A DNA stretch of 63,988 nucleotides, counting the filler, from Dimargaris cristalligena (Eukaryota), in assembly GCA_003614675.1 (NCBI GenBank). It is 6 parts of 6 records of this genome, joined end to end, with 100 filler letters (N's around TTAATTAATTAA, not from the genome) between each part and the next. Parts side by side here need not be neighbours in the genome. Positions count along the whole stretch, not along the records: positions 1 to 10,719 come from ML003161.1; 5 more parts are not named here. One strand, written 5' to 3'. The position numbers and the translations under genes are program-made. Shown piece by piece: positions 1 through 57,378 of this stretch (its first letter is position 1; the number at the start of each line of letters is the position of its first letter). The notes below the pieces were generated by a model. That model was not told where the DNA came from. It worked only from the letters and a program-made list of their open reading frames with translations, and made no database searches.

Positions 1-551
1 AGTTTCTATACACTAGCTGCAAGATTATATATAAAAGAAAGTTTAGGTTTATTGTAATTAAATTTAGTGTAGGAATAATCCTTCAAAAAATAGTAGAAAA
101 TAGCTTAAAAGTATTAGAAAATAGTGGAAAATAGTTAAAGAAAGCCAATTTTCTGCTAGTCTGGTTGCCAGACATCAATTTACATAGTATAGTTTTTTTT
201 TTTGGTTTTTCTGAGTTATTATTCATAGATTTATTATAGGTCTTATGATTAATCACAGGGTCAGTGATCATTTTTCCCTCATTTTAAGAAAAAGTCCTAT
301 CAATGTACCTATCTTCCATTTTAATAAAAAAATAGTACTGCTACATCATTTGGAACTTTCATCTAAATCGTTATATAGTTACATTGAACTTCACCCATAT
401 AGTAAAGGCTAGAATATAGTCCCAAGTATAGGATGAGCCAATCATAGAGATGGAATCAGTGGGATGGGGGAAATGAATTTCCAACATAATTTACTTATTG
501 TTTTGGCCTTCTTACCTACCCTTCCCCATCCCCACTTCCTGACTAATCACC

Positions 552-1020
552 ATGTCTAAACTCTATGTTGGAAACCTGGCCTTAAGTACCACTGATGACA
601 CACTCCACCAAACCTTTGTGTGGTTTGGTATGGTTGTCGAAGCTATGGTTGTGAGAGGCCATGGTATGGGTAAGTGCATTGTAGAATAATTTAAGACATA
701 CTCTACTAACCATGGCTATTTTGGTTCTTACCAAAAATTCATCATACCCATACAATGTCCTATTGTACTGTAAATGAACCTCTCATTTTGCTTGGAATGG
801 TACCATTTCTTCTTTTTCTTCTTCTATCCACAGGTTGCAGCTGTGGCTTTGGTTTCATAACTTATAGTAGTGTGGAGGAAGCCAATAGTGCCATGACTGT
901 TCTTAACAAGATGGAACTGGAAGGCAAAATAATTAAGGCCAGCCATGTCAGTGATCATGGTCAATAAACTGGCAGCCATTGAAACAGAGGCTACATGGGG
1001 GGTTACAGCAACTACTGCCT
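552..1020 (+). pseudogene. Hypermutated glycine-rich RNA-binding (single RRM) gene
   Basis: Exon 552-669 reads MSKLYVGNLALSTTDDTLHQTFVWFGMVVEAMVVRGHGMG (RNP2 LYVGNL). GT-AG intron 670-833. Exon 2 reads GCSCGFGFITYSSVEEA (RNP1, normally GRSRGFGF). The G/Y-rich tail is interrupted by TAA (965-967) and TGA. Substitutions are CpG-type (R>C, R>H, R>W, T>M, A>V relative to family consensus). Confidence 0.85.
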
Positions 1021-1795
1021 AGGTGCATCTGATTGGGAGGCTTGCTTACGTCAGCAAGAGGGAGGATACCTGGTTATTACATTCTTACACTTTAAAACCT
1101 AACCAGTCACAGTTTGGCACCAGTAATGTGACTGAAATGCCAAGGTCAAATCTATTGTAATGACATTCTGGCCCCATGTCTCTAATCCAATTTTTCCCCT
1201 ACCACCCACTTTTGAGTGACTGCATTCAATGCAACTATTTACACAGCCATGTCTCACTGGAAGGCTGGTCATGTTTGTGGTATAGACCCTAGCCCATGCT
1301 TTTCTTGTTCCCCTACTTCTCACAGTATTATTGAATCGTGTATTTGGGCATACTGTTCTCTCTATCCTTTGGCAGCATATTCAATACCTGCTCTTGTTTC
1401 ACATTTTCTCTATAAAACCAGAATCTAATGGTGGATTTTATAGATATATGATAATTATTGCCTTGTAGAAAATGCCCCATTGTGGAAATATTTGATTAAT
1501 CTCCATGAATCAGATGGTTTAGAGGTTAGCAAATTAGTCGGAATTCAACGAAATTGCTCACAGGCGGCCCTTAGCACTTAATCGAGCAGCTGGGTATCGT
1601 GGTGCATCGCAGGTAGTAGTGTTGACCTCCACCTGGCCGAAGATTTGAATCAAAAAAGCAATTACAATATCCCCAATCACCGCCAATGAACGTATATTGT
1701 CAGAATTAGCCATGGAATAGGGATATCTGGTATTCGTTTATTCATTTTTCATTAATTGGAAGGCATAGCCGGAGATTACTTCGGACACTATCAAA

Positions 1796-4096
1796 TTACT
1801 CGGATGGCCTCATTATAGGGAAGGTCAGCGTCTCCCGCAAATGTTTGACGTTGGTCAGGATGGCGCAAAGGCGATCGATACCCATGCCCCAGCCGCCGGT
1901 AGGGGGGAGTCCGTATTCCAAGGACTGGCAGAACCCCTCATCTAAATTATGGGCTTCTTCATCTCCCACCGCTCGATCCTTTAAATGTGACCGGATGAAG
2001 ATGGCATAAAACAAAAAATTAGCAATGCGGCAATAAGAGTGAGAGCAGGTGATCGTGAGATGCTTGTCAGAAAGTAACGGACTACACAGCAGTATCGCAA
2101 ATTTGCTGACACCTCCAGTCTTGGCTAAAAAGCAAGAGCTCACAAGTTGTATCAGCTGGCAGTTGCAATAGTCTAAAAATCCGGCGTAAAAGGGAGGATT
2201 GAGCAACTTACCTTAAGCTGTTGAGCGAACCGGGCCCGTTGATCTTCGGGATCATTCAATTCCTCGTAGGCATTGACAATTTCCTTTCCTAGCATAAACA
2301 GTTCAAATCTTTGTGTCACAGAGGTATCCTTATCGTTGGATTTGGCCAATGGGCTCATTATTTTAGGGTGGCCATAGAGGAATGTGGGCTGGATACAGTT
2401 AGGTTCCAGATAATGCCCGATCAACGTATCTAGTACTCGGGGTAAAGTAACAGGGGAGCATAGACGAATCCGGTGGCGCTGGCAGATTTGGGTAAGGGCA
2501 GCCAACGCGAAATCTATTTGGTGTAGTTCGACAAAGCAGGTTAAAGATCAAGATGGTTGTGGAGGTAAGCATATAGACCCAGTAGTTGCAGCATTAGAAA
2601 ACCCATTACTGCATTAGTGGCCCACCCATAGGAGGAGAGGGGGGTGTATCGGCTGGCTTCGTTCCCTAAATCTACTGGAAGGCCTTTGCTATATTAAAGA
2701 ATGATATTCCCAACGACTATAAATGTCCGATGGTAAAAACAGATCTAGTAAGAGTAAGCGACTACGCTGCTATCTGACCCAGCAGTAGCGTTGATGCTTG
2801 GTTACCGATTCGTGTCGAAGACAAGTATAGACTGGATTACAACTTACCGGGATCGTCAAGGTTGGGCAACGACTCGCCCAGTTTACGCTCTAGCTCCTCC
2901 ATGACGTGGATCCGTTTAAACGGTGGTTTGAAATCGAGCAACACTGGCTCGGTTCCCGCGGCCGAATAAGTCACCTGGGCCGATCCCGTTACAGCCACAG
3001 CGATTTCGCGCAGCAATTCCTCGGTGGTCTTAATGAGACCTTCCATATTCGTGTACGCTTGGTAAAACTCAATGGTGGTAAATTCCGGGTTATGGTCGGC
3101 ATCGATACCTTCGTTGCGGAACTGTTTACCGATTTCGAAGACCCGGTCCAAACCACCAATGACCAGCCGTTTTAGGAACAATTCCGGGGCCACCCGCAGT
3201 TGGAGGGGCAGATCGCTGAGGGCGTGGGCTTCGGTGCGGAACGGACGCGCGTTGGCCCCTCCGGCCTGGGGCCATAAGATTGGCGTTTCCACCTCGGTAA
3301 ACCCCCGCTGATCGAAATATTGACGTAAAGTCCGGATGAGTAAGGCCCGTTGCCGTAATAGCTGGCGGGTGTCCGGATTAAGCAGCATATCGAGGTAGCG
3401 CTGCCGGTAGCGGCGGTCGTAGTTACGCAGTCCCGTTCGGAAGGGCAAGTCATGGAGGCAGGGGGATAGCAGTCGAAGGGGCTGGGTCACAAAGAGACTG
3501 AGTTCACCGGTTTTGGTTTTACCTACATAGCCCCGCGCCTGGATAATGTCCCCTTTGCGGAATAATTTATGGTGGCGGCCGAATTCAGGGGAGCCGGTTG
3601 GTTCAAGAGGGCCTCGGGACATATCCACGGTGGCCTTGGAAAGCACTAATTGGAGGTGCTGATTGTTTTCGAGAAGCTCAATGAAAATAAGTTTAGAGCT
3701 GGCTTCCCGTCGGCTAATGACCCGGCCATTGACCATAAAATCAGTATCCTTGCGTCGATTGCCCGGTTCAAGATGGTCATGAAATTGCGTATGGAGGACC
3801 GATATGGGTGTATGAGCAGTCGGCAGTTCAGTCGGTGCATCGGGAAAACAGGGGTATAGGGGTAGGCCACTTTGGTGGAGCTCGGCCAGACGCTGTCGTT
3901 TATGCTCCAAGTCGACGTTTTCGGCCGGAAGCTCGGCCAGGCCTTCTTCAGGTTTGCTACTGACAGACGGCTTGGTTGTATACATCCGGGGGACTGGCTG
4001 TGGTGGGTTTCGGGCAGCGTTAGTGCGACCGGAGGACACGGCAATTTGCCGACCGAGGGTCCGAAGCCGAAGTGACCGGATAATGAGAGAGGCCAT
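1796..4096 (-). CDS. MSK1: Lysyl-tRNA synthetase class II, probably mitochondrial (3 exons: 4096-2848, 2513-2212, 1978-1796)
   Basis: OB-fold (GKTKTGELS), GGANARPF, motif 2 [15 protein letters not shown] and motif 3 [16 protein letters not shown]. Arg/Ser-rich N-terminus ([17 protein letters not shown]) resembles a mitochondrial presequence. GT-AG introns keep the frame. Confidence 0.93.
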
Positions 4097-4521
4097 GGGG
4101 GTATTGGATTCAAGGAGCAACGAACGAAACGAATCAAATAAATGCAAGCGCTGGTAAGTGAGGGTTCGGGTGACGAGCTCAATCCACAAAGATGTTTAAT
4201 ACTAAATGAAAGTTAGTCCGAAGTACTATTAGTACCCAAAGGAGCTGGGGCATGTCCATAAAGTGAAGGAGGAGGAGGTCTCACTATGTACTAGTCTGAT
4301 CAGAATAACGTGAACCATTCCTTTATAGGAATCCCGCCGCCTTGACAATTTGGCCTTCTTAGTGTTATAACCCCGCCTTGTCCGCTACGTTGACTCCAGC
4401 TGCTTGTTTTGTCCCCATTGCCCCAATTTGTGAAACGAGTGGATGCCTTTATAGCCTTTCACAAACGTTAACCTTTCTACTTGTCTTTTGCTACCTTGAG
4501 CCCCACTTCCCCCTTAGCGAT

Positions 4522-6677
4522 ATGGCAGTCCTACACAACGCCACCAACTTATACTTCGCTCCGGAGCCTCAGTCAGCCTCCCCGCCGGTTCCTTTATACC
4601 ACTCCCTACCTGAGGGTCAAGCCCGTATTTCCGATACTCAAGGGGTGGTACGCCTAAGTCACCGCCAAGGGACCTATTCTGATTCAGCCAGCGCCACTAC
4701 CTCGCCCGCCGATACGACCATTGGACTTACCTGGCCTACCCTACTTGAGACCATCGAATGGACCCTTAGCGATGGCTATCGCCAACTGCTAAACTCCAAC
4801 ACTGTTTTGCCCAAGAGTGCCTGGTTTAGTCGTTGGGTGGCTCAACCCGGTCTTCATCTTCGCCTAACCCTTAACTCCGAAAACCCCGCTCGTACGCTGG
4901 ACCGGCTTATACTTAACGAAGTGCTTGGTTTTGTCGGACACCATACTGGCCTCCCGATTACCGATTTTCAACCTAGACCAGGTGTCGTAGTTGATGAGTT
5001 CATACAGAAAGCCGGTCAATTAGTCACCAACCCCGATGCCTGGATTACGCTTGGGGATGACACCCTCTATCTGTATGTAGACAGCTACAGGATAGCTGAC
5101 CTGTACCGCCACTGGTTGCTTGCTAGACCAGCTCCTTTAAAGGATTCCCTTTGGAACCAAGTAAGTATCTTCTTGGAGTCTGACGGTGAGGCCCAAGGGT
5201 CAGTTCGCCATGCCAGTATGGTCGCGTCCCGTTCCGACCAGGCTCTTATGAATTGGACGGCTTGGGTATGGACCGACATTATATCCGATTATGCCGTCGA
5301 ATCACCCTGTGCCCGCGAAGAATCCTCCGGGCCCCATTGTAACCGTGTTGGGATTTTTCGACTATCCGCAGCAAAATCCACTCTGGACTATCGCGGATTG
5401 GAATTGTACCGAATGGGTTCTAAATTAGAAGGTAAGCCGCCCTTTTTTACAATATCATACGACATATACATACGTGCTACACTGGTTTGTGTTGGATATT
5501 TGGTAACCGGTCATAGCGACTGGACCTAGCAATCCTGATGCCCTAAATTGAGCACCATGTACATTCCACAGCTGATTATTGCTCAAACATTATCGTATCA
5601 CTTCATTTGAGATACCTACCTGGATTATAGATCAATCGGTTCAATTTAGCGAACCATTACCCCCCGCCGAGTCGTTCCGCTTTGAGGTTGAGCCCCCAAT
5701 GTCGCTTCACCCGAATCTGGTTCTAACCTTTCATCGCCACGGTCAGGCCTCTATGCCACACCACGATTCGTCCGCGGCGGTTCAAGGTGTAATGACTGAC
5801 GATCACTTAGCCGCCGCCCCCTTAGTGATCAGTACATTGCCCCGAACTCTCTTTGCGGATCCGTATCAACTGGCGGACCACGAACCCCTCATGGGAACCT
5901 GGCAGTACTGGGGGCCAATCGAGCTCGAGTTGCCCGCCGATGTGCTGTCAAATTGGGGCAGTTTGTTGATTAACCGGCCCCGGGTGGAACGCGACCTACC
6001 GGAATTACAGAAATCGGACGACAAACGCACTAGACTCGGCAGGGTTGACATCCCCCTCCATACCCGGTATATCCTTCCGCCTAATACCGGCCTACCCCAC
6101 GCCCATAGTCACGCGGCTGCCCTGGTACACGAACCGATTGTTTTCCAACCCTTGTCCCCTAAATGTAAGCATTACATACCTAACTCGGTTTTAAGAGAAT
6201 CGGCAACCTATAGTATTGCCAACCACTAGATCGATTATGTATAACTGTATTTACCATTTTATGCCTATCTTCTGAACTACACCGCTTTCAGATTATGCAT
6301 TTGACTACCCGGATAATTTCCAGCATGTACTACTGGCCGGACATCGACCATTATTGTGGCTACCCAAAACTACGTCTTATACGGCCTATACCCTGGTTCA
6401 GCCGGCTTCAGGGGAGCCGGGCCGCCTTTTACCTAACGCGACGAGTCACTACTCCCCTACGGCCCACGTTTCCTTAATCCGCCTGGGCTGGCAGCCCTCC
6501 GATAATGCGCCGCCTACCTCTTCCAGCCTAGCCGATGGGTCGTATACGGTCAAAATACCCATCGCTGATCCGAGCCACGGGGCTTTGTTGAACTTTGTGA
6601 CCCAGAATATCGTATTTTGGACATTTTTGATTGTCGCCATCAAAATTTGGCGGCTTAATAACTCAAACGGACTATGA
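4522..6677 (+). CDS. PBN1: PIG-X/Pbn1-like GPI-mannosyltransferase I subunit (exons 4522-5431, 5631-6164, 6292-6677)
   Basis: Motifs SLHPNL, LPRTLFADPYQL, ELELPA and IPLHTRY resemble the PIG-X family. Single C-terminal TM helix. Splice phases join the three ORFs. Confidence 0.75.
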
Positions 6678-7322
6678 GTGCTAGGTCACATCCAATCGCA
6701 TATATATAATGATCCAACTACATTTCCCTATTATATTATAAAGTCGCTCACACTTTCCATGAATACAATTTTGATACCTATTCTTGGACCGTTCCTTAAC
6801 TTTCGATTAACCGTCACTAAGATACCACTGCAAAGCAACCTTGAGTATACCAGAGATACATTATTTAATTTAGGGAATAGGGCATATCGGCTTCGTCTTT
6901 TTATGTATACGCTCCATCGAATGAATGGTAGAGGTCGTTAGTGAATATTGTCTGGCACACTAGTCGGTTGTTGGTTAGTGCGACCCTAAGAATATGGAAA
7001 CCGTCAATGGAATAAGATTGCCATAACCAACGCATAGCCTACCGATGCAGATTCAATACTACGTTTACTACTGGCCAGCAACCAATCTTGCAAATCTATA
7101 TTGTAAATTTATTGTTTATTATCTAAACTTTACTATCATTGGGAAATGGATAACTGGATGAAACCGAACATTACTAGAGCCTGCAGCTGAGTAGCTCAGC
7201 TTCGAGATGTAAGTTGTATAGATTTGATAAGCGGTCAAAAGTGTAGGCATGCCAAAGAGAAATGGTACAGTGACGGGTAGACATGGCTAATGGGTCGAAG
7301 GATTTATTGGTATGGGGGGAAA

Positions 7323-7610
7323 CTATTGGTTGTCCCATTTGTCTATACCGGCCTCGGCCTTCGCTTCCTTTGCGTCCTTTCTTTTCTTTCGTTCTTCGGG
7401 AGTTTCATTGAGCCTGGTACTGATGTGTTCTTTCCAGGCATCGTACACGTAAACCGCCTTGGGAATGTGCTTGGAGAGCCAATTCCGGGTTTTTTGACGT
7501 GTTTCACCAGTCGGGGCGGCCTGGACTTGTTGCATTCGACCGGTTGAGGTTAGTACGACTGCAGAGGCCAGGGCCAGAAGAGCTATGTGGTGACCGAAAA
7601 AACGAACCAT
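7323..7610 (-). CDS. Small secreted basic protein of unknown function (95 aa)
   Basis: Hydrophobic signal-like N-terminus (IALLALASAVVL...AAP), charged mature part with RKKRK, TATA-like TATAAAAA on the minus strand near 7880. Confidence 0.6.
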   Translation of the reverse strand: MVRFFGHHIALLALASAVVLTSTGRMQQVQAAPTGETRQKTRNWLSKHIPKAVYVYDAWKEHISTRLNETPEERKKRKDAKEAKAEAGIDKWDNQ

Positions 7611-8438
7611 GATTATGCAGTGCCGGTGGCGGTGGTGTCGGTAGAAATTTGAGCACAGGGGGGAGCGAAACTGGGCAACTTTGGAGTTTTAAAATGAAAA
7701 TATAGGTGGTAGGATTGGTGCGAAGAGGGGTAGAGTAGTCAATAGGCGGGCGGACTAGTTCGGCGGCTACTTGGTATCGGGTCCGGCGGTTGGGTTGGAT
7801 GGTAAAGAAAACTGTGAATGTCTAATTATTATTATGATTTGGCAATGCAGGTCGGGGAAGCGGATATGGACACCTTTTTATATCAACTAGCCTTTCGGAC
7901 AAGACCTTGAACAAAAGCTATGATGTCATGCCGCCAATCAACGTACCCTTGAGATTCCGTAGTCCAGGCGGGCTGTCTGGTGCATCTCTTTTTGGGTTCT
8001 GTACTAAAACTATAGCGGCGAAGTGTACGTACTACACTGTGAGTAGCCGGAGGTGGCACAGGGAAAGTTTAGAATACCCACCCTCTCCCCCTCTAGAATT
8101 ACGCTTGACGGGTACACTTGTGTATTTTCGAAGATTCGCTTGAATAGAAAGGATTAATGTTTAGCTTGATGCTAGGGTGAAATACCCATTCCCTTAGGCT
8201 AACGGATGGGCTAACTAGCTGGTATGGGCTCGTATTTTTGAATAGTGGATTGGCTATTACCAAGTGGTACTTGTGAAAGGAAAGAGTCCATGGGGGGCCC
8301 TACGCTTGGGACAGTCCGTGTGGGGATACATGGGTAGCACAATAGAGAAAGGAAAAATGACACCGGCCCTTGAAAAATTGGCCATTATTCACCTTAAGGA
8401 CTCTAGCCGGTTGACTTTCTAGGTTGGAAGCTGTATTC

Positions 8439-8582
8439 ATATGGGAGAAGTTCATCCAAGCTGTATAACGAAAAATTCATTAGATTCGGCCAATATTACT
8501 AGTTAAAAATACATTTCCCATATATTTTCCCATACACGTATAATGTAAACCCTTATATAGCTGGGCCGAATTTTACCCATAT
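8439..8582 (-). mobile_element. ~145-bp inverted-repeat (MITE-like) element, copy A, reverse orientation
   Basis: Reverse complement matches the copies at 23223 and 52121. Ends ATATGGG...CCCATAT. Confidence 0.8.
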
Positions 8583-8870
8583 TCTACAAATCTAGTAGTT
8601 AATAACGGCTGCCAGGTCTGAGGTCCCGGACTTTAGAAGTAAAGCAGGGACTTCAGTCAAATGGCCCACAATAATACGTTTATCGAAATTGATAAAACGT
8701 TGTAACGTTCAAAATTAAGCGGCCGTTCACATGATCTAACCAAAACCTCCTGTCCAATTATCTAGATTCTTCTAATGGAAAAACATACCATAGCCATTGT
8801 GTACGTGTTTCGCTTAATTCGAAGTTTCGGAGGTCTTTAAATGCAAATCAGCCAACAATAAAAGACTTAG

Positions 8871-9087
8871 TGTAACTATCCCACTGTGCCTAGTCCAAGC
8901 CCCCTCTCTCACTCTCTGCCTTGGTGCGACCTACGCCAACTCTCTCCTATTCCAATTAGAACGGGGACCATTGGGCACTCTTGTATTCGGCTATTTTATT
9001 ATATTCATAATTCCCTCTCACTCCCTGACCTTGTACAATTGGGCCATATCCAGTGCTTGCTTGGCCATGGTATCGGGTATAGTTGTA
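8871..9087. repeat. Possible short solo-LTR or TIR relic
   Basis: Starts TGTAACTATCCC and ends GGGTATAGTTGTA (degenerate inverted termini). No TSD and no second copy in the window. Confidence 0.25.
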
Positions 9088-9430
9088 ATGGGCAATTATA
9101 CCAACTCAGTCCAATTTAGCTGAGTTCGATTGTGAAAAAAAATAGCATGTTAGGGAAGGGTGATTTTAATGGGTATTCAAAATCAAGGAAAAAGGTGAGC
9201 CTAGTCATAATACGCAAAACATTTCCTAATAGAATATCAATTCGAACTGTGGACTTTAACTTAAAGGATTGGACTGCTATGTCAAAAGAATCAATTTCGT
9301 CGAATATTATCGTGTGAGTTAGTTTGCAATGGTCGACGACGGTATAACCAATATATGTGTGGCCATAATGTATCGATTCATTTAAAAAATAGAGCAAAAG
9401 GTAGGCCCTAGTGTATACTATTAAAGGATA

Positions 9431-9805
9431 TGTAAATACTATAACACCATGGGGTACCCGGCGCCAGTCAGATAATATATTCAGCCGGACATTCGGTCAG
9501 GCCACCGATGGTTTCCACTCCGCCCTTATCCACAACACATCCTAGAGATTCTACAAGGATACTAACGGGCCCGACCAGGCCGTACGAATAACACAGACCA
9601 TACAGGGGGCCCTACTCGAGTCTATATGCACCTAACCGATTCTTGAATTATCCTAGTATAGAAGGAACGGCTGGCCAACCCAAACACGAGTCCTCAGGCG
9701 ACTATCCCTCCCACTCGACCTCCCTCGTTTTTGTAATCGCTATTTTAATCATCGTGCCCTGTAAGGGCTATTTTTAATGAAACAGACCTTCCAAAGTTAT
9801 CTACA
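9431..9805 (+). repeat. Possible solo LTR
   Basis: TGTAAATACT...AGTTATCTACA inverted TG..CA termini, internal TATA-like TAGTATAGAAG and AATGAAA near the 3' end. No TSD seen. Confidence 0.3.
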
Positions 9806-10719
9806 CTCGCTCATACTCGTAATTAATAGGGTAAAGTAGAACAGGCGTGAATTTGCAGTAGTGGGGGGAAGTGCAAATATGGGAGAGGTTCAACTAGGCT
9901 GGCTGGTCAGAGTGAAATCAAAGGATTTTATATTACTGCCTCATGAGCTGCGGGACTGTATTACCATTTCACAAATTGTTGGGTTTTTTTTAAAAAATGA
10001 GAATAGGCATCACATTCATAATTAGCAGCCACTGTCACCAGCGTCAAGTTAAAATTATGGCCATTCCCAATGGATAGAGTGACCACCTGCCTAAGGGAAT
10101 TAATTAGTTCTATAAAAGTACACATAATAAGTGCAGATGAAAAGAAAGATGTGGCCAACCACAAAATATCATATAACCCTCCATTTGATATCAATAGGTC
10201 TTCTTGTCAACTTTCTATTATCTCCCCCTTGCCTCTTCCCTTATTTTAGCAGCACTTTCTAACTGGGCATTTGGTCCAGGTGTATCTCCTACATGCCAGC
10301 TATCCTGTATTGATCCCAATAGCCTTTGCTATCTTTAAGCAATTTTAGGTAATTCACACCATATTGTGGTAACTCAGGACTGGTGATTTTTCTCTTAATC
10401 AATTATTTCCTTGTATATTTACCCTCCTTAAGTATCCTCAACATGGTGCCATTCCCTACTTATTTGGCCACCATGGCATTAGTCTGGCTCTTGGCTACTG
10501 AAAAGGGTTTCAGGTTTCCCCCATTTAACCCAAATACCACCAAAAACCACTTCATAGACCTGAGCCAATCATCTTATTCTTTTACTGGCCCCATGGCCAG
10601 CTGTAAAGAACTGAACTTAAATCCTTGAAAACTGAACTTTATTTGAAAAGATAGGTAATAAAAGGGAAAGGTGATGATAGACTTGCTGTTCCAAGAGGTG
10701 GCAGCAAGGGGGAGTATTT

Positions 10720-10819
10720 NNNNNNNNNNNNNNNNNNNNNNNNNNNNNNNNNNNNNNNNNNNNTTAATTAATTAANNNNNNNNNNNNNNNNNNNNNNNNN
10801 NNNNNNNNNNNNNNNNNNN
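10720..10819. other. Artificial contig linker (N44-TTAATTAATTAA-N44)
   Basis: 100-nt spacer with all-frame stop cassette; identical at five positions. Confidence 0.98.
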
Positions 10820-11130
10820 ATATACAGGGATAACTTTAGAGGGAGGTCCCAAGGGGAGGATATTACTAAGACTAAAGTAGAGGTAAATAAGCCAACTGGA
10901 CAGTTATGGGTATCCCAAAGACTCAGATGGTAAGTAAAAGAGTCTGATAGATCAGTGCTGGAGTAAATAGTGTAAATAAGTAGAGTCAAAAAGGTGAATA
11001 ATTATATAATAATGATAATCCTATAGTACTGGGTGTGGCTATGGGAAAGCTACTATGGCACTATAAGGCCTAATATAGTTAGATGTTGAATCTGGCTAGA
11101 TTAAGGAGTATTAGATAGTCTAATATATAT
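10820..11130 (-). mobile_element. Hypermutated LTR-like repeat, truncated at contig start; homologous to ~30378-30690
   Basis: TATACAGGGATAACTTTAGAGGGAGGTCCCAAGGGG...CTATAAGGCCTAATA aligns with TATGCAGGGAAAACTCCAGAGGGAGGCCCTAAGGG...CTATAAGGCCTAATA. Differences look largely like transitions. No CpG seen. Confidence 0.7.
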
Positions 11131-13203
11131 AGATATGTACTGAAGTCCCATAAAAAACATTTATTTACTTACTGTTACTTGTATTTTTTATCTACATTTA
11201 GAGTTTTTTTACATCCTTAAGCCAGTCTCACCTTACCCACAAGGCATAAGGCTCAGTACCCCCACATCCAGCAATTCCGACCTACTGGACGTGGAAATAC
11301 TTGCCGGTGGAGGGCCTACCTTTTCAATGGCATAGTATTCTAAAGAAGAGGCGAAGTTGCCCAGTATTAAGCACGTGTAACCTTACACAGCATGCCCTCT
11401 TCTAGGAGCCGCTGAGTCATTACTCACTACGCCTTTAAATTATATTGATGATCCTAAACACCTGGTCATATTGGAGGGCTATTGAACTGCGTGATTTATT
11501 GGATAGTACCCAAGGTGGGTTAGACGACCCGAGAAATTGGTACCTTTTAGGAAGCCCTGAGGATTGTGGCTTTATCGAACGTTCTTAATCCCAAAGTATA
11601 AAGTGCGGCTATAGTCGGTTACGCAAGAAACAATCCGGGAAAGAGGAAAACATGAGGGGGCGCCCCCAGGTGGTGGTTGATTTTTAGTAATAGGGGCCGT
11701 ACAAACTGACTTCAAATAGCAGAACAATAGTCCCCAATAGTGAAAGTATCCTGTTAGACGTGATATATTCCGACTTATACTTGTTATATTAACTATTTAG
11801 GGAGTTGGAGACTGGGTATAGACATACCGTTATGCTGTAGCTAACTGTAGTAATATACAGTGCAATATACTAGTTCGCTATAAAGTCACAGAATATAGCC
11901 ATTCTAAGTAGAAGTATCAATAGGATATTGCGAGTTGTAGCTAGGTTTGCTAAAGTAGCTTTCACCGGTTGGAGATCTCGAGAAGACCCAATTTGAAGGA
12001 TCGTTATATCCAGAGCTCTTCAGCTCAGTTGTACCACCCATCCGGTGAATAGAGTGTGAAGCTGAGGTACTCTGGAAGACTACTATTATTCCTTTTCGAG
12101 GGCATGCAATATATTTTTTGAGATCGCTTACTGAGAAGTACTGTATTAGTTTTGTTTCGGACCACGTCTGTACGCCAGCGAACCGTGGTAACTCCTACCC
12201 AATACACTATGGATATTGGAGGTATACAACCCTTAGAAAGCAGCGCCAATGGACTATCGGAAACATACAGTTTCCGGTAACGTATTCTTGAGTTAGTCGA
12301 GTATGTTCTAATCTTAGGCATTTAAAGGGGTTGCCTTTGGTCTAGACAAGCAGTGCGCCTCGTTGGTTGCAGGGTAGGTGTAATACTGGAAAACATCCTA
12401 GCACCAGCATCATCACTGATTCGTAAAACTATGCATCGGCCAACTTAGGAAGGTACCAGGCGATGTGTGAAAGGCATTGGGAGATAGAGAACCTTCAAAA
12501 GAATTTGACTTGTGCTTCCCAATGTACTGACCATTATAGAGCTACGGAGTCAGTATCACGGCACAAAATAGCACTAGTTAAATGCTGGCTATTTTATTAT
12601 TGCTGGTTCTGTGTGTAATCAATATTTCATGCCATGACCAACATACTGTCTATGACGACTCTGATACCTTCGCACTCCCTTTATCTTCTTCACACCCTTT
12701 ACCAGTCTCCCCGTCTGGGCCGCAATTTCCGATTTTAGCGCCTTGTTTTTCCCTGGCCCATTACCCATGGCCTTTATTAGCTGATACCTATTGGATTTAA
12801 AATGGAAGGTGGCACTAGGGCTCACCAAGTGGTTCGCTCTCTCGAGACCACCCAATATACGCCTCTGTAACATTTAAGCACTGTCTTGTACCGCAAGCTC
12901 CGTGAGTTTCTTTACAGCGTTTGTCATTGGAAAGGGAAACCTCGAGCTGTATATAGAGGCGGTTACTCGAATGGGCTGGCACGGTTGGGGGAAGGGTCAA
13001 GAGGGGAGGGGGCTCTCGGTTTTGAATAAAAGGCCCTAATCTAAGCCTAAATGTTTTACTGTCGCTGTATGCTATGCTCGTTTGCCACTAGTTGAACATC
13101 CTTAGCAGCCCACGCACCCCTGCATGGACTTGGGCCCAACCAACTTCCCCATTTAGTTTTTCTATTATTATATTTATTCACCCCTGCCCAACTATCCGAA
13201 AAC

Positions 13204-14671
13204 ATGCACTATTGGAGGTCTGTAAGTGTCCTGGTATTTGGTCGGATACTTCATCTCACCTATGCTGCCCCTAGTTTAAATATGGACGGGGTAAGTCAAG
13301 CAGCCCCACTTTCGAATCCCCCGGTTGACTTTACCAAGTCATTACCAAAGGAATTAGTCAGTATAATCATCGGATTATCGACCTTCCCAGACCACCTGTC
13401 ACTGCGCAGTACCTCACGATACCTGCAGAGGGAGGTCGACGATAACCCAGTACACCAGAAATTAAAGGCAAGTGACGCGAACCTCGCACCCCAGTACATT
13501 TACTGTCCCTCCCCTCCATCGCCCTCTCCTTTAAAAATATATAAAACTAAACATTATACTGTAGTCTGGGTCAATTATCCACCGATACTCGCCCATTCCT
13601 TTATTTACCTCAATGTACTGCACCACGGTATTCCGGGATGAAAATTGCGTAACCCATCTGACTCCATACTGGCGATAACCCTTTCAATAGCCCATGAGGA
13701 AAATCATGATTATCAATGGGGAAAAACTCACTGACGAACCCACCAGCGTTGAACAAAGGGCCGGGGCTTTAGTGGATCTCCTCTTGCCTAGTATCGACTT
13801 GTACCACATTGTCGCTGCTTTGGACCACTTCCGTATAAACGGGCTTACCCGCCACCAAGTGCTTATACCCGGTCAGTTTACCAACGACACCCCTCCCCGA
13901 CCTGTGGCGTTCAATCCCCATCGCTTCCTAAAAGGGTTAGCAAGCCTGACGATGCCCTATATGGATATTTTAAAACTCGACGATAAGCAAATGGGTGACC
14001 TGTTCCCGGCCTTGTATGCAGCCAAGCTGGGCCAGTGGGCCGAACTACGGGCGATGTTTCAGACGGCTACGCAGCCGAATATCGAAGCCACTGCCCAGCG
14101 TAATTTTCAAGGTCGCCGGCTGGTTTCCTCGGCTTTTTTGGATTTCCAGGGGGACTTGGATATGCGCACCGACGTAGTGGAGACGGTCATGGTGGAAATG
14201 ACGATGGTCCAAATCGTGGCGTATTTAGTGGCGGAGGGTCAGATCGGTGCCATGTTTGCCCTTCTGGAACAACTGAGACCCGAGTACCCTCAGTGTATGG
14301 CCTACTGGTTGCGCATAGCTGTGCTTCTGACGATGGAAACTGCGCAATACCACCAACCTAGCCATGAAACGTACGCCCGGGAGGGGGTGGAAGATGCGGT
14401 CGAATTCTATCGGGCTTGTGCCACACTATTCGGGCTGACCAAGGCGGCAACCGCGCTGGAGGCATTATTAGTGGATGGGGCGACGGAAACCGATGCCTTC
14501 GATTTAACCGAATGCTCTGACCTACTATACAATCCCCGACTAACGCACTTTGCGAGCTCACCCCTGACCCTTTTGTTTCGGTTCCCCACCTACCACTATT
14601 CCTCAGGTTCAGAGGCATTGGGGAATCTGCCAATCGTGGATAGCACCACTATACCCTTGGGTTCGCTTTGA
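13204..14671 (+). CDS. Signal peptide + F-box-like protein (exons 13204-13467 and 13691-14671; GC-AG intron), about 414 aa
   Basis: Signal-like MHYWRSVSVLVFGRILHLTYA-AP; F-box-like SLPKELVSIIIGLSTFPDHLSLRSTSRYLQREV. Donor AAG|GCAAGT and acceptor CTTTCAATAG|CCC are both phase 0. Helical C-terminal region with a degenerate ankyrin-like PALYAAKLGQWAEL. Confidence 0.7.
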
Positions 14672-15167
14672 ATCAAACTTATTTAATTGTTTCAACTTTA
14701 TCTCAGCTTTTACTTTCGCCTCGCGTCTTCATTATTCATAGCTATTTATTAAATTATGCCCTTTGGTACACCTCCAATATTTAGTCAATTGAAAAAATTA
14801 TGCCAGTGTGTAATGGTTGGAGCTAGAGTGGCGGTGATATATACATTGGTGGGACTATAGTGATGTACATAGAGCCAAAATCACTGCGTATATTTTTTTT
14901 ACTATAGTGAAGACAGGTCGCATTCAGTGCATTTCAAATAAATTCTCTCCATTTCTATCAAGGAATTCTCTTTGAACACTAAAAGTCACTAGTATTTTTT
15001 TTTCGCTTTCAACCTTCACCTAGTCTAACCTGGCTGTATATTTTCTCTTTTGTGCCGTTGGTTCCCCCATTCGTATTCTTTGTCGACGTAGCTTTTTCCG
15101 CCTTCCTACTGCTTGGCCCTCTCCCTCCTTCTGGCTCTCTTCCGCACCCTTATATTTTATTGACGCC

Positions 15168-16321
15168 ATGGGTCGACCCCAAATCAATCGACAGGAAGCT
15201 AAAAAGCCTGCAACTAAAGGCTCAGCCCAGGACAAGAGTCGGCCGAAGGGAAAACCAATGAAAAAAAGGAGTGTCGAGTCCACCAAGTCGTTATCGGATA
15301 TTAAACGGCGTGTCCGGGACCTCAACCGATTCCTAAGCCGACCTAACCTACCGACCGCCCAGCGCGAAGACCTCGAGCGTCAACTCCGGCCCCTTAACAC
15401 CCAACTCCGGGTCTTACAGTTCTATGCCGCCGAGAAGGCGAATGCTACAAAGTCCCACCGGATTCGGTTTTTGGGTAAGTATTTCCCATTGCATAGTATC
15501 CTTTATATGGCACCGGCTTAGTCTGCTAACGGGCCTCCCTGGACACCCGGGGTCGCTGTTCCTTCTGATGTATGCTATGTATGATATAAATCTAACTGCG
15601 TATCTACTGTATCTATAATGGGTGGGGGGATATCCTGGAATCGTTGAATCTCAATAGATCGCAAGAGAATCAACCGCCGGATCAAACAGCTCAACGCTTC
15701 AATCCAGGAATGCCAGGAAAGCGACGAAACCACCCAGAATGAATTGGCCTTGCAGCGCCAAGAGCTTGAGTTGAATTTGAAGTATATTGAAGTAAGTTCG
15801 GTCGCATCCATTCACGCCAGCCTGTCTTTTACGAACTTCCGTCACTAGCGACTGCCACATATGGGCTAAGTAGTGGCGATGGGCTAGTTCATTATTATAT
15901 TCATCTGCCTGATAGTTATTGGAACCTACTAGCCGACAAGCTCCGTCTCACTCATATCTACTTCCATCGGGACTATTCCATTATATAATTTACTACCAAT
16001 TAGCACTATCCCCATAATTTCCCGTATAAATCCATCAATACTGACGCCCCACTAGCGAAAAAACAGCAGGAAATACGGGAAGAGATTCGCACCGCCATCG
16101 AAAAGGGCGAAGTGTCCCTCTTGCCCGACAAACGCCTAGCGGCCTACCTTAGCCAAACCACTACCGCCACTACCCCAATCGATGCTCCGAGCAATACCAA
16201 CGACGCTGAATCCGGTAGCGGATCTGAAGAGCCCCTGCCCAAGGATACCCAAAAGGCTGCACTAAAAAGCTCCAATTTTTTCGCCACAGGATCTGACGAT
16301 GAATCTGATGACGATGCCTGA
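15168..16321 (+). CDS. EFG1: rRNA-processing protein Efg1 (exons 15168-15474, 15658-15791, 16004-16321)
   Basis: IKRRVRDLNRFL, HRIRFL-DRKRINRRIKQL and LNLKYIE-HYPHNFPYKSI match Efg1 motifs. Acidic tail. GT-AG phases consistent. Confidence 0.85.
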
Positions 16322-16717
16322 GGGATCTTCAATTGTAAGATTGGTATCACTGCCTAATTGTTTAAAAAGCGACCTATAATATCGTTTGCTTAGTCTCAAA
16401 ATCTACCCTAAAAATAAATCACAATGATGGCCTAGCACACACCAGATAGCAAAACTCCAGAGTTCTTTATCATGTTTCGCGCTAGAGTATATAGGTATCC
16501 CTGTATTTATTTCAGGGGATGAGTAGAAGTCTGAGATTGAATACAAAATTAAAGAAAATCAACGAAATAGGCGAGAAGCGTAGTTTATTACCGGTAGGGG
16601 TGAAGCGGGGGAACAGCCCGAAAGACCCATGTAATCTACTCTAAATAGAAAGAGGGGATGCCCGTAAACCCAGTATCTAAGGAACAGGTGATCGATGGCG
16701 GCGGCGAAAACCGGAAT

Positions 16718-17185
16718 TTATAGTTCATCCCGAGCCTTCTGTCTCTCGAGGCGCTTCTTCTCTTTTTTCATGTTGACGCGGCGCATAAAACTGATTCCGC
16801 CGCGAGTAGCAGGGGGTGGGAGATGGGCCGTAATAAGGTGTAAATATATCAACGACGCATAAATTAGAAATGACCCATAATACAATGACTTAGGGGTCGT
16901 TGCTGATCTAACTATTGCCCTAGGCGAACCGTCGATGCACATTTCTCGTCAATAAATACCAGTATTCTACTGGTATATAACTTACTCGTTGTGTTGGCAC
17001 AGCTCGTATTCGTGCTTCTCGTGCTTACAGGTCCAGGCCAGGAAGAAGTTGTCGTAGCGGCACCGGTTGAGGGGCACGAGCAGATGGGCACAGTAGTCGC
17101 GAACCTCCAAGGGGATGCGGTACTCGGCCAACTGCCGCTGGGTCATTTTCATCTCGGGTTCCTTGAAGGGATCTTCGGCCAACAT
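16718..17185 (-). CDS. NDUFB7: NADH:ubiquinone oxidoreductase B18 subunit (exons 17185-16986, 16790-16718)
   Basis: IPLEVRDYCAHLLVPLNRCR...CKHEKHEYELC twin CX9C motif; spliced continuation DFMRRV. Confidence 0.95.
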
Positions 17186-17952
17186 GGTGAACTAGATTGG
17201 GAGAGAAGCGGGGCAGGGTAGGGCCCATTGAATAGATATAAAACAACGTTAAGAGCCGGCGCTTTGGATTAGCAAATACGAATAGGGGCTGTGTACTGGG
17301 CTGACTGTGGGGTGCGATCCAGGGAAGTAGTTCGGAACTAGTCAACTTCGCCTACCTAGTACGGTTGGGGTCGGGGGTTAAATGCTACCGAAGGAAAAAA
17401 GACTAGAGACAAGTCACGTATAGGACAAGGCTAGAAAGGAAGGAGATAATACAAGGGTTAAATTAAATAATAGTGCTTGGATTGAGGGAGACCATGTGTG
17501 CATTGGAATCCCAATCCCTGAGCTTGGTCACTTTGAAACGGTGGGCGAGCTGTTCGTGAATCCGTGCAAAGCAGCTTCGCTGGTTCAACCAAATCCCTCG
17601 CATACAAAGGCTCATAAGCACTCCATGTCTCCCCCCCCCACCCACCCACACCTGTTCCATAATAATATTATCCCAGAGACTCAAACCTCCCTCCCCCTCA
17701 TTCATAGCTTTATCATGCTCGGGCTGGGCGATCAAGCGGAGAGACAGCACGCCAAGTTGAATTCAGTACCACGTGACATTTAGGACCTGGCCTCTGCCCC
17801 ATTTGCCTCCCTTCCCAACTTGGTTCTGGCATTATCAAATTAGCACAGTCTAGACTGGAATATGTTATTGAACTATATATAAGATATTCTCAAAGACTGG
17901 TATAAAAGTAGTAGTGACATTGGGGCCCAGGTTGGAGTTTGATTTATGGCGC

Positions 17953-20345
17953 CTAGTCGTCTTTCTCTGGATTGGGTAGCTGGTGTTTAATCGGTGGAAT
18001 GTAAAGATATTGATCATGAAATGCCCGGTCGTGCTTGGTTAGTGGCGGCAACTTAATAATTTTAAAATAATCTTCGGCGTGTTGGTTCAAGGCGATGGAG
18101 TATGGGGGAGGAAGATGCACAATAGAGAATCAATAATATCATAAGGAGTTAAGGATTACACACACGGCATGGGCATGTCATCGGAAACAGTACCCACTGG
18201 GTAAAGAGCGTGGATATATGGTGATATAGGAATAGCATGGGGTAACGTCCAAAGATACTGGCATTGCCCCCATCCCTCACTTGTCCGGATGGACCAGCCA
18301 AGTGAATAGAAATAGGGGTTTCCAAAAACATGGTCGATTAGTGTTAGCAAAAAGGTAGGATATTTTCTGGAATAACGGCCATTTTTGTAGCTCGGTGTTG
18401 CTCATTCTAATTAATATATAAGTTTAAACATGCAAGTAATATATAGCCGAGCATGGGTTAATGCCTACGATTAGTTAATTAGCCTCGTACTACCCAAAAT
18501 ACGTCGTATGCATGTATCCGGTAATTGGCAACATAATGGTCTATTCAACTATACCTATCAATGTAGCGCTGCAGGTTATTGCCAATGAACGCCACATGCT
18601 CCCATTTGTCGTCAACCAGGTTGGCTTCTAAGAGGTTGTGGTACATGAACCCTTCGCAATGAGGCATGTAAAATAGTGTAAGCCGATCTACTATCTGGCG
18701 ACAACTCTAAAGGCGGGAAAGAGGAAATGTATTGGAGGTACCCGGTTGCATAAAAATCGGTCGGCTCAGTTGAAGTGCGAATCGAAGTATCGAAGGGTCT
18801 TGCCGTACATATGTATGGTATTATCAATCGTCTCAAGTATGCATGGACTTGTGGGTCGCTTAATACCCCCAAGCTGTACTGAAAAGCGAAACACTCTTAC
18901 ATTGTTTTCCGTAATTACAGAATAGCCATACGACTTAATCGCTGCTTTTTCGATATTAGTGAACACGGGATCAAATGCGGACACCGAGCCTTGGATCTAC
19001 AAAGGGAATAGGGGAGGGCAGTAGAATTTGCCGCAGAGTTTGCTATAGGCTGGATTGAGTGTGCGTTTATTATGACTATGCTTTTTATAAATTCTTATAT
19101 AACCCAACACCAGCAATTACAAAGGCAATACAACTGTGGGCTCCAGTGTCCCATTCATATAAAACAAGTAAGAGTACATTCCGATATGCTTAGTATAAAT
19201 CAGAAATATTTAAACTGTCCTACCTTAGCGAGTGTTTCCAAGTGCCGAAGCAAAGCCATTTGCAACTGCGAGTCTTTGGAACTCCATAGACTACCGATAC
19301 CGAAACAAATAATATCATGAACCGGCAGTACTGGTGGGTCGTCCACAGCACCCAGGCCCGCTACTTTGAGTGCATCTATAAATCAGTAAAATCCCCCGTA
19401 GTAAACGAGCAGTTTAGTGGTCGACGAACTTTGTATATGATGGGTGCCATAATGGGGATGCTAATCCCGCGAAATAAAAATAGACAGTCTAACAATATGA
19501 CAATTATCTACCATACAATGTTAAAGTCCTTCTAGCGAAAGTAATGTCAGAGCTAAAAAAAGTGACAGTTTAATCGTACCTGTTATTTTTCCAAAATACG
19601 CACCGAGATCCTGTTCTTGACTAGTGGGATATAGCGGAATACCAACAATACACGCTCGGAGGTGGGGTTGTTTAATTCGACTATTAGGCAATGGGTATAA
19701 ACAATCTCTCCTAGAGAACGTGGGCGAAAGAATGCATAGTAATGTTTTAAACAAAAGATGCTTCACTCCCCCATTAGTTTTGAGAGACAGTGTCGTCTGA
19801 CTTTAGTCTCAGCAGAAATCAACTTACATTCGATTTATCATAGTTTCCCGGATATGGTTTACCGCCAGGTCGATTTGGGTTGGATCAGTCGTTTCGGGAT
19901 CTAAATCCAGCAGCTGTCGCCGAGCAGGGTCTAGTCGAAACCGATTTCCGCGCCGCTTGGCCGAACCGCGTGGTTTCCGGGAGGGGGAATTCGTGGGGTG
20001 GGAGGTTGTCCCCTGTAACGTAGGCAGAGGTTTGGTCTCTACGGTAGGGCTGAGTGTCTCTGCTAAACTCAACGGAAATGCAGCAAAGGTACGTAATAAC
20101 ACCGATGGTTAGTTAGACAAGGCCGAAAACATGTGAATGTGCGTAGGGGTGAACATGGGTATGTCCACACTGCACAGGGTTTTGGTATTTCAAGTTAGGA
20201 ACTCCGTTGCCGCTGTTGCTATTTCTAGGACCGCGACTCTACCTGATTGACCCGCGCATGGTGGGGTGCTTAGGGAGCCGGGGTTGGGTCGCCGACCAGG
20301 CCGTCGGCTACGTCGCCCAACCAATTTGAATCCGTCGTCTTCCAT
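17953..20345 (-). CDS. SRR1/Ber1-like (SRRD) protein, about 8 exons, mostly missed by the ORF track
   Basis: Manually joined exons give MEDDGFKLVGRR..., IICFGIGSLWSSKDSQLQMALL, AFDPVFT, TLFYMPHCEGFMYHNLLEAN, FIGNNL and AFHDQYLY, which are hallmark SRR1-domain motifs. The small exon near 19552-19512 is less certain. Confidence 0.85.
18079..18363 (-). other. Probable AT-AC (U12-type, minor spliceosome) intron
   Basis: Donor AAA|ATATCCTACCTTT, U12 branch TCCTTAAC at 18155-18148 plus CCTTGAAC close to the end, acceptor CAACAC|GCC. Phase 0 on both sides restores the SRR1 C-terminus. Confidence 0.75.
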
Positions 20346-21482
20346 TAGGGATCGTTCTAGGAATGACTCAATTGTCGAGCGAGGAAAATGTACTAGTGTA
20401 AAAAAGACAGTGGGATTTCAAAAGCGTTAGACGGGAAAGTCAGCTAGTAGTGGGCCTATCCCAGACACTGAGGGCGACAGGAATAGAATTCACTATTGTT
20501 ACAGGCCAGCTTGGAAAAATTAAAAATACAGCTGGCTGTAATAGTATCCCCTGGTGGGTGGTGGCATAGTACCTGAGGAGTCTCTCGCTTGTAACCCAGT
20601 AAAGTATAATGGCAGACTACCTAGCTGCATATTTCATGCTGAGGGCAACAAGCGTTAAGGGCCATACATGCTAACATAAATTCTACAAATAGAAACAATA
20701 GCAGGACTTAATTACCATTAGCTCATTCAATTAATATCTCAGTTATGCATGGGTTTTTTTTGGAAAGGAGGAAGACATAGTTTGGATACAGGAACAATAG
20801 CCTAGAGAATCAATAGGGATGGATTGCCCTATTTGGGCTTAGTTGATCGAGAATGTCATTTGGAACATCTCTCCAACAAGCCCGCTCTAGGCCACGGCAT
20901 ATCTGGGCAATCGCCAACCCGTTATTGAGAAACACATTGTTTTCCAGTCAGTGGTGAGCCGGGGTTCCTTTTACAGCCCGATAGTGATGGATCCAAGCAC
21001 ACCAAGCGTGCGGTATTGTCTGAGCTACGTTTGCCTGAAATTAGAACGACCTATAATGCCTTAGGCTATCTAGTTGGCCATTGTCTAAATGAGTGAATAG
21101 TGCGGATGGATTCTTCCGAGTAAAGGTGGCCTGTAAAGCAATTCTCCGAAATAGGGTCGAGGGGACAATAAGGCTAGCATGCCTGACGTGAATGTTGTCT
21201 ATTGTATACTAATCCTGACTAGTTTGCTTGATTCGCTGTACACCGCGATACGGTGAAGGGTGGACAATGCAATCCATGAATTAATCGATGTCTGCCATAT
21301 TCCCCGAAAATGTATAAAAGAGACTTCCTTGGTGTCTCCTTAGCTACTCATCAAATTATCAGCAACCTGCCCATTCGCAATACCGAGCCATACACCACTT
21401 ATATCATCATCTTCTACCACTTCCCAGTTCTTCTCTTCTCCGCCTCTTTACCAAATTACCAACCCCCCCTTCACCACCAACC

Positions 21483-21528
21483 ATGCTTACCAACTGGATT
21501 TCTCTTGTCACTTTGGCCTTGGCCACGC
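21483..21528 (+). CDS. 5' fragment of a probable secreted protein, cut by contig end
   Basis: TATAAAA near 21313, pyrimidine-rich leader, ACCATG and a signal-like MLTNWISLVTLALAT. Confidence 0.5.
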
Positions 21529-21628
21529 NNNNNNNNNNNNNNNNNNNNNNNNNNNNNNNNNNNNNNNNNNNNTTAATTAATTAANNNNNNNNNNNNNNNN
21601 NNNNNNNNNNNNNNNNNNNNNNNNNNNN
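21529..21628. other. Artificial contig linker
   Basis: N-TTAATTAATTAA-N, 100 nt. Confidence 0.98.
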
Positions 21629-57376: not shown

Positions 57377-57378
57377 TC

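Follow-up and report, generated by a model that had tools for sequence, protein, structure and literature searches.

We analysed a 63,988-base stretch of DNA (the window) from Dimargaris cristalligena, a mould-parasitic fungus of the Zoopagomycota, and found that it contains four sharply bounded blocks from which CpG dinucleotides have been almost completely lost. The first of these, block 1 (1–1537), is genuine Dimargaris DNA that begins in a multi-copy repeat and covers an intron-bearing gene for a protein with an RNA recognition motif (RRM). The loss is specific to CpG and symmetric between the strands, the blocks are linked to repeats, and the changes carried by the RRM gene are biased towards former CpG sites. 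Decay of methylated CpGs within silent domains is the probable cause.

CpG-erased blocks

Block 1 contains exactly 4 CpGs (at 369, 638, 1049 and 1337; observed/expected ratio [o/e] 0.08; GC content 0.369), the number that an earlier note on this DNA had estimated by eye, and the 1537 bases directly after it contain 77 (o/e 0.90). With 43.9 expected, the Poisson probability of 4 or fewer CpGs is 1.4e-14. None of 493 background windows of 1537 bases within the window had fewer than 33 CpGs, and none of 2000 mononucleotide shuffles had fewer than 34. The edge was placed at 1538–1539, with the switch lying between 1337 and 1539: the CpGs that follow 1337 are found at 1539, 1549, 1565, 1583, 1598 and 1608, and a CpG-free gap of 201 bases has P = 8.6e-6 at the CpG density of the flank. 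The abrupt change to normal CpG frequency noticed earlier near 1538 is therefore real, with CpGs at normal density from 1539 onwards.

The window consists of six contigs (1–10719, 10820–21528, 21629–32336, 32437–43131, 43232–53896 and 53997–63988), ordered by size from 10.7 to 10.0 kb and separated by five spacers (10720–10819, 21529–21628, 32337–32436, 43132–43231 and 53897–53996), each of the form 44 N + TTAATTAATTAA + 44 N. Since the window is made of joined contigs, features beside the spacers lie at contig ends and are not genomic neighbours of the features across the spacer. Five public sequencing runs from two studies contain 86–92% of the sampled words of 1–3074, and four of these (X1 to X4, X2 being from the second study) were compared over contig 1 (1–10719) by means of their Logan contigs. 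Summed depth was 3400–5400 in the bins covering 1–716, compared with 110–174 (X1–X3) for the single-copy contig, and many different continuations (loose ends) were found behind 486–492. From about 491 onwards the depth equals that of the flank, each run has one contig, and the sequence is single-copy at ≥95% identity. Block 1 is thus composed of a multi-copy, AT-rich part at the contig start (1–490, GC 0.28, 1 CpG) and a single-copy part (491–1537, 3 CpGs, o/e 0.07).

The other three blocks are similar. Block 2 (10043–10719), with which contig 1 closes, has no CpG and consists of single-copy DNA (10043–10601) followed by a very high-copy sequence (10602–10719). Block 3 (10820–11277), with which contig 2 opens, also has no CpG, and its first part (10820–11075) represents a diverged version of a repeat that is present in block 4 as well. 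Block 4 (29735–32336), the last part of contig 3, has 5 CpGs in 2602 bases (o/e 0.05). Together the four blocks make up 5274 of the 63,548 non-N bases (8.3%). All four sit at contig ends, occupying 4 of the 12 that the window has, and each is linked to a repeat, 1–~490 and 10602–10719 being multi-copy by depth and blocks 3 and 4 carrying a common repeat. In the earlier note it was proposed that the process acts on DNA other than transposable elements (TEs). This holds in that a single-copy, intron-bearing gene is covered, but not in that block 1 starts in the multi-copy repeat; because it does so and all four blocks are at contig ends, it is simpler to suppose that the erased state spreads from repeats.

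When 308 windows of 400 bases were examined, the CpG o/e was bimodal: 17 windows fell below 0.1, the main mode extended from 0.6 to 1.1, and the 5 windows at 0.1–0.3 mostly straddle block edges. The erased condition is a discrete state, with no gradient.

Nature of the mutation

For comparison with the blocks, an erased background was produced in silico by randomly converting each CpG of the window background to either TpG or CpA. The region 461–1537 (GC 0.406) has o/e values of 1.31 for CA, 1.40 for TG, 1.33 for CC, 1.52 for GG, 0.83 for GA, 0.82 for TC and 0.87 for TA, and the erased background (GC 0.425) has 1.34, 1.44, 1.40, 1.38, 0.84, 0.81 and 0.87, respectively. When CpG itself was left out of the profile, 97% of the 264 erased background windows were farther from their own centroid than 491–1537 was, and blocks 4 and 2 also lay inside the erased distribution, with 20% and 13% of the erased windows farther from the centroid. 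Raw windows nearer to the erased than to the raw centroid numbered 0 at two of the tested lengths and 2% at the shortest. As the profile matches that of erased native DNA, a foreign donor is unnecessary.

In erased DNA the CpG o/e is 0.05–0.08, with TG and CA at 1.3–1.4 and GpC unchanged at 0.94. Both strands are affected alike, with 95 TG and 80 CA in 461–1537 and 360 TG and 374 CA over the four blocks. With only 9 CpGs against 734 TpG and CpA in the blocks, CpG transitions would have to be at least ~41 times faster than the reverse changes at equilibrium. Away from the repeat the TG+CA o/e is flat, being 1.39 in 501–1000 and 1.37 in 1001–1500. In counts, contexts and dinucleotide profile, the loss is near-saturating, sharply bounded and specific to CpG, as the earlier note had held.

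All four NCG contexts have been erased. Their frequencies per kb are 10.2 (ACG), 14.3 (CCG), 9.5 (GCG) and 12.4 (TCG) in the background, and 0.38, 0.38, 0.19 and 0.76, respectively, in the blocks. No TpCpG preference was seen, although saturation limits this test; TCG is the least-erased context and accounts for 4 of the 9 CpGs that remain. Indices of the Neurospora type for repeat-induced point mutation (RIP) were i) TpA/ApT, 0.93 in block 1 and 0.95 in the background, ii) (CpA+TpG)/(ApC+GpT), 1.34 and 1.09, and iii) the composite index (CRI), –0.42 and –0.15. CpA is enriched in block 1, not depleted. Of the two processes suggested earlier, RIP thus finds no support, the composite index being negative and CpA having been gained, while a mutational origin stands at the level of CpG decay to TpG and CpA, on which composition, sequence context and the analysis of the RRM gene agree.

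The RRM gene in block 1

The RRM gene is on the plus strand and starts about 60 bases into the single-copy part of block 1. Exon 1 (552–669) retains an intact RNP2 motif (LYVGNL), and both it and exon 2 (834–967) match Pfam family RRM_1. Between them lies a spliceosomal intron of 164 nt (670–833), with the structure GTAAGT...TACTAAC...CAG and no CpG, so the earlier observation that the intron and its splice sites have been kept is correct. Since the intron is retained, the gene is not a retrocopy, and a processed pseudogene was rejected. Removal of the intron yields the annotated protein P0121 (83 aa), which scores 55.6 bits against RRM_1 (PF00076; gathering cut-off 20.7) and is found in NCBI and UniProt as "hypothetical protein" or "RRM domain-containing protein" of Dimargaris cristalligena. 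The frame ends at TAA (965–967); behind it, TGSH is followed by TGA (980–982), which is of the CGA>TGA type, and then by NRGYMGGYSNY.... As the note had stated, in-frame TAA and TGA stops interrupt the tail. The translation of 968–1075 behind the stop has the look of a remnant of a Gly/Tyr-rich tail and was probably once coding.

RRM domains carry two conserved motifs, the hexamer RNP2 and the octamer RNP1, which starts with Arg or Lys. In the Dimargaris gene RNP1 is degraded to CGFGFITY. Its first position is Cys where R is found in 47% and K in 43% of 151 family rows, and it has Ile where 91% of these rows carry Val; all other invariant positions of the RRM are intact. The 151 domain rows, each of at least 30 bits, were taken from 382 aligned rows, the domains of proteins obtained in a HMMER search of 1.84 billion representatives, and columns containing <60 residues were excluded. 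Every single-base change of the RRM coding sequence was then scored against the resulting profile.

Among the 24 nonsynonymous changes that restore CpG from TpG or CpA, 15 gave a better match to the family (9 of 13 of the CpG>TpG type and 6 of 11 of the CpG>CpA type), compared with 7 of 60 for the other transitions (1/23 for other T>C and 6/37 for other A>G; Fisher p 5.8e-6). Among the further controls, C>T/G>A changes improved the fit at 9 of 66 sites and transversions at 67 of 353. The improving reversions include C41R, C43R, W24R, H19R, H37R, M27T, M39T, V23A and I48V, with C43R restoring the first position of RNP1, where R or K is present in 90% of the rows. Each of the codons regarded earlier as converted (C41, C43, H19, H37, W24, M27, M39 and V23) is better fitted to the family after CpG reversion. 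Sites of the TG and CA types alternate along the gene.

The lysyl-tRNA synthetase (LysRS) gene next to block 1 (1796–4195, minus strand), which is CpG-normal and intron-bearing, served as the flank and negative control. Here CpG reversions improved the fit at 19 of 87 sites, compared with 25 of 224 for the other transitions, so there is a mild baseline effect; the RRM gene exceeds it (15/24 vs 19/87, p 3e-4). The LysRS gene is convergent with the RRM gene and block 1 ends 258 bases past its stop codon (1796–1798), which would put the edge of the block roughly where the LysRS transcript should end.

The earlier note had taken the RRM gene to be a genomic duplicate, which the read data and protein searches do not support. 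Region 491–1537 is single-copy at ≥95% identity, and word-based protein searches (exon 2 against longer proteins, and the 83-aa protein against proteins of near lengths) returned only the window's own protein. In the HMMER search almost all of the best 150 proteins have multiple RRMs, and the best single domain scored 66.7 bits; six of these proteins, including ones from Mycena, Tribonema and Haplosporangium, were traced to their source, and there was no close relative among the six.

Mechanism of CpG loss

A pattern that is confined to CpG, strand-symmetric, interspersed, plateau-like, sharp-edged and attached to repeats points to long-term symmetric CpG methylation followed by deamination of 5-methylcytosine (5mC). 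We consider it probable that the blocks arose by decay of 5-methyl-CpG in sharply bounded silent domains spreading ~0.5–1 kb from repeats; that methylation was responsible, that the domains were silenced and that they spread from the repeat is what we infer from this pattern. In such a process, an adjoining multi-copy repeat would seed a discrete domain of silent chromatin in native DNA, in which CpGs would be symmetrically methylated, perhaps still today. Conversion of 5mC to thymine on either strand would continue until TpG or CpA stood at almost all former CpG sites. Beyond the repeat, the domain would extend over ~1.05 kb (491–1537) and ~0.56 kb (10043–10601) of single-copy DNA, and would halt near the 3' end of a neighbouring active gene. 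The intron-bearing RRM gene trapped in it would be silenced and, with selection lost, would gather missense changes of the CpG type (R>C, R>H, R>W, T>M, A>V and V>I) together with a few others, including the stops in the tail.

Differences between strains may be relevant to whether this process has ended. The window and X2 differ at 14 single-copy sites (~1.4 sites per kb), of which 4 are of the CpG<>TpG/CpA type. One of these, 1374, is inside block 1, being CpA in the window and CpG in X2, and the other three lie outside the blocks but near their edges, at 1623 (85 bases from the edge), 9909 (134 bases) and 9617 (426 bases). At the differing sites, CpG losses are found in both strains. The zone consisting of the blocks and of the bases within 430 of an edge makes up ~25% of the compared sequence and contains all four of these sites (P ~0.004), the grouping having been chosen after the data were seen. 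The process may thus be still active, with the CpG-type differences marking the advancing margin of the erased domains.

Several points weigh against methylation decay as the cause. The extreme depletion (at least ~41-fold) would also fit an enzymatic mutator, and a transition excess of ~41-fold is several-fold beyond that of the human genome. The clustering of single-nucleotide polymorphisms (SNPs) near the blocks rests on four sites. A very abundant repeat at 8437–8583 keeps 4 CpGs in CpG-normal DNA, so copy number alone does not trigger the erased state. Finally, 5mC has been reported to be scarce in Zoopagomycota (PMC11258239, as far as the relevant passages of that paper go).

We regard it as rather unlikely, but as the most serious alternative, that an enzyme hypermutated the repeat at CpG, in a manner resembling RIP or MIP (methylation induced premeiotically), and that this activity leaked into the single-copy flank. 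A Dnmt1-class enzyme acting as a deaminase in a sexual or pre-meiotic stage would be an example, in which case the RRM gene would have been hit as a duplicate or as collateral damage. Such a mutator would account for near-complete saturation in a gene whose RRM domain still scores 55.6 bits with its other invariant positions intact, and for the position of the blocks beside repeats; moreover, passages on Pucciniomycotina describe CpG-signature hypermutation of TEs in fungi having only a Masc2-like Dnmt1 (PMC4352252; PMC3318451). However, the flat plateau of TG+CA away from the repeat and the abrupt edge that follows argue against leakage from a homology-triggered process. The single-copy state of 491–1537 (at ≥95% identity) and the failure of the protein searches to return a paralog also speak against it, as do the lack of TpCpG preference (4/9 residual CpGs being TCG), the negative classical RIP indices, and the interspersion of TG-type and CA-type sites, which is as expected from many independent events.

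Less likely again, and in our view improbable, is that the blocks are fossils of a vanished methylation system or silent state, the CpGs having been lost long ago and no such process operating on these regions today. The two copies of the repeat in blocks 3 and 4 are only ~72% alike, so the blocks can be old, and the scarcity of 5mC in Zoopagomycota noted above (PMC11258239, in part) would agree with a system that has disappeared. Against this, 1374 is polymorphic for CpG/CpA inside block 1 and three more CpG-type polymorphisms lie 85–426 bases from block edges. In addition, CpGs would return slowly once methylation had stopped, yet the o/e is still 0.05–0.08.

It is very unlikely that the 83-aa RRM protein is the product of a functional gene whose only peculiarity is its location in CpG-poor DNA. 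The open reading frame (ORF) with its start codon, the intact splice signals, the clear RRM_1 match and the protein annotation would favour such a gene, but mutation restricted to CpG can make a stop codon only from CGA, so that an open frame and GT/AG sites would be expected by default and would not speak for function. The gene has Cys where 90% of the 151 rows have Arg or Lys at the first position of RNP1, fits its family better after CpG reversion at 15 of the 24 sites, and has a Gly/Tyr-rich remnant cut off by stops, and among 5.8 billion clusters there was no protein of at least 45 residues that had enough 5-residue words in common with it to count as a candidate. Judged from its sequence, the annotated protein is more likely to represent a decayed gene than a working one.

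Authenticity of the blocks

The edge of block 1 is present in independent data. A single contig crosses 1537 in all four runs (X1, 461–8465; X2, 461–8465; X3, 457–2565; X4, 458–5669), and the edge near 10042 is crossed in three of the four (X1, X2 and X3), X4 having no cover there. Contig 461–8465 of X2 differs from the window by 6 letters over ~8 kb, which argues that X2 is not the same data refiled. The junction being bridged in 4/4 runs from two studies, block 1 is genuine genomic DNA and the amplification artefact or chimera considered in the earlier note was rejected. A ligation chimera had been considered on account of GAATTC and a common 9-mer at two of the boundaries, and was dropped, the other two boundaries lacking them and reads bridging the junction. 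The product of the adjacent LysRS gene is 100% identical to a protein of Dimargaris cristalligena, confirming that the DNA is from an early-diverging fungus; the next matches, from Dispira, Tieghemiomyces, and other Zoopagomycota and Mucoromycota, are at most 54% identical.

The lifestyle of a mycoparasite makes host DNA a conceivable contaminant, and the composition does shift abruptly at a contig end, but it is extremely improbable that the block is foreign, having come from the CpG-poor genome of a host mould, a virus or another donor, or that it is a chimera made during assembly or amplification; this has been largely refuted, since the junction is bridged at flank depth in all four runs from two studies, one with its own SNPs, the other 15 dinucleotides match those of erased native DNA, the intron of the RRM gene is of the fungal type with a TACTAAC branch site, and conserved residues have been destroyed at former CpG codons, which indicates decay and not the codon habit of a donor.

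Joints of other kinds were seen in contig 1. The only strand-switching joint (5669/5774), with a side of 112 letters, occurs in X4 and in no other run, well away from the block edges; it is the kind of inverted join made by amplification, so that such artefacts are in the data, but not at the block edges. Four short-sided joints (398>8442, 404>10597, 488>10601 and 8475>9879) have sides of 20–29 letters.

Repeats and genes elsewhere in the window

The two copies of the repeat common to blocks 3 and 4 align poorly, too poorly for the comparison to carry weight; they differ by 57 transitions and 42 transversions, with CA/TG in 4 of 47 adjacent double mismatches. An AT-rich repeat of ~150 bases was found at 8437–8583, 23222–23352, 33329–33477 and 52121–52264 and at the starts of contigs 4 and 5 (32437–32500 and 43234–43307). 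Its copies are 72–98% alike, with a summed depth of ~65,000–98,000 in all four runs; they lie in CpG-normal DNA, keep 0–4 CpGs, and end two contigs. In its appearance the element looks like a miniature inverted-repeat transposable element (MITE).

Block 4 contains a second decayed gene (30898–31440, minus strand). It encodes a signal peptide and, behind a TAG (31372–31374) that is not a CpG-type change, a Ser/Thr-rich ORF that has a pattern of Cys residues and a hydrophobic C-terminus. Two intact genes on the plus strand (26826–27392 and 28719–29351) are located in CpG-normal DNA upstream of block 4. Their products are 33% identical to each other and belong to no Pfam family, and each has a signal peptide, a Cys pattern, a long Ser/Thr-rich stretch and a hydrophobic C-terminus resembling that of proteins with a glycosylphosphatidylinositol (GPI) anchor. 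The block 4 gene is built like these two neighbours, and five Cys columns can be aligned across the three, but the similarity is weak (BLASTP E 0.03–0.09) and the divergence too great for substitutions to be tabulated. The three may belong to one local family, of which a single gene has been silenced.

The blocks contain 36 ORFs of at least 45 aa, and a Pfam search of the 15 longer ones detected no TE protein domains; the sub-threshold matches were to Vanabin-2 (E 0.075) and a zf-like domain (E 0.081). The end of contig 3 appeared by eye to be similar to a tRNA or short interspersed element (SINE), but neither ARAGORN nor Rfam gave a match there. The only RNA gene detected by these two in the window is a tRNA-Lys(CTT) gene on the plus strand (57303–57378).

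Intermediate CpG o/e values of 0.23–0.33 were observed at 20420–20819, 26429–26828, 52032–52431 and 54797–55196, and the start of contig 6 (54001–56500) has values of 0.44–0.59 over 2.5 kb. Such windows may represent the erased state in a young or incomplete form, or ordinary variation.

Comparison with known systems and significance

Early-diverging fungi are usually described as rich in N6-methyladenine (6mA) and poor in 5mC. Among the papers listed in a library search, judged by title and abstract, no publication on cytosine methylation or CpG in Dimargaris was found. The nearest known case is that of Phycomyces blakesleeanus and Linderina pennispora, the latter a member of the Kickxellomycotina and of the same subphylum as Dimargaris. 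In these two fungi 5mC has been reported to occur almost only in repeat-rich regions, with the rest of the genome unmethylated (PMC11258239, in the passages concerned). What is available for them are methylation maps, whereas Dimargaris is known from its mutational footprint alone; this footprint is near-saturated, sharp-edged and extends over single-copy genes, and CpG erasure does not appear in the passages of PMC11258239 considered here.

In Basidiomycota, a C>T bias with a CpG signature in TEs has been linked to a Masc2-like Dnmt1 (PMC4352252), and passive deamination of 5mC has been described in TEs of the Agaricomycotina (PMC3318451), in the parts of these papers that deal with the subject. 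As in Dimargaris, C>T/G>A changes at CpG occur in silenced repeats and an enzyme of the RID type is unnecessary. However, the basidiomycete case (PMC4352252; PMC3318451, same parts) concerns TE copies of Dikarya, with 10–40% of the copies involved, while in Dimargaris, a member of the Zoopagomycota, over 90% of the CpGs have gone, including those of ~1 kb of single-copy gene DNA. The TpCpG hypermutation described as "RIP-like" in Pucciniomycotina (Horns et al. 2012, PMC3318451, in the sections consulted) likewise has a CpG-containing target and is associated with repeats. Dimargaris differs from it in having no TpCpG preference, TCG being the least-erased context.

RIP depletes CpA and raises TpA, whereas CpA is enriched in the Dimargaris block and the CRI is –0.42. 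Leakage of RIP into single-copy flanks fades with distance, unlike the flat plateau and sharp edge observed here. Among Ascomycota with RID, Sharpton and colleagues are said to have found in 2009 that repeats of Coccidioides and Uncinocarpus are nearly CpG-free, with a bimodal distribution of CpG. The feature that Neurospora RIP does have in common with the blocks is a repeat-linked C>T/G>A change able to inactivate adjacent genes (PMC13297926, in the portion bearing on this point).

The process seen in Dimargaris is of a known kind, but is unusually clean, saturated and sharply bounded, and it is found in a lineage for which there was no earlier description. A bolder proposal, to which we give only limited credence, is that Dimargaris possesses an efficient, repeat-seeded and domain-bounded CpG hypermutation outside the Dikarya, which would remove over 90% of the CpGs over ~0.5–1 kb of flank, kill genes, and advance at its margins.

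The block interiors, their margins and the CpG/CpA polymorphism at 1374 provide concrete loci for a methylation assay. The analysis also flags a decayed gene that is filed as a protein in public databases, and the bimodal CpG o/e offers a simple genome-wide marker of silent compartments in the fragmentary assemblies of unculturable fungi. As a footprint, the blocks indicate that in at least one lineage of the Zoopagomycota a strong and sharply compartmentalised process of silencing or mutation targets CpG, or did so until recently, and takes neighbouring cellular genes along with it.

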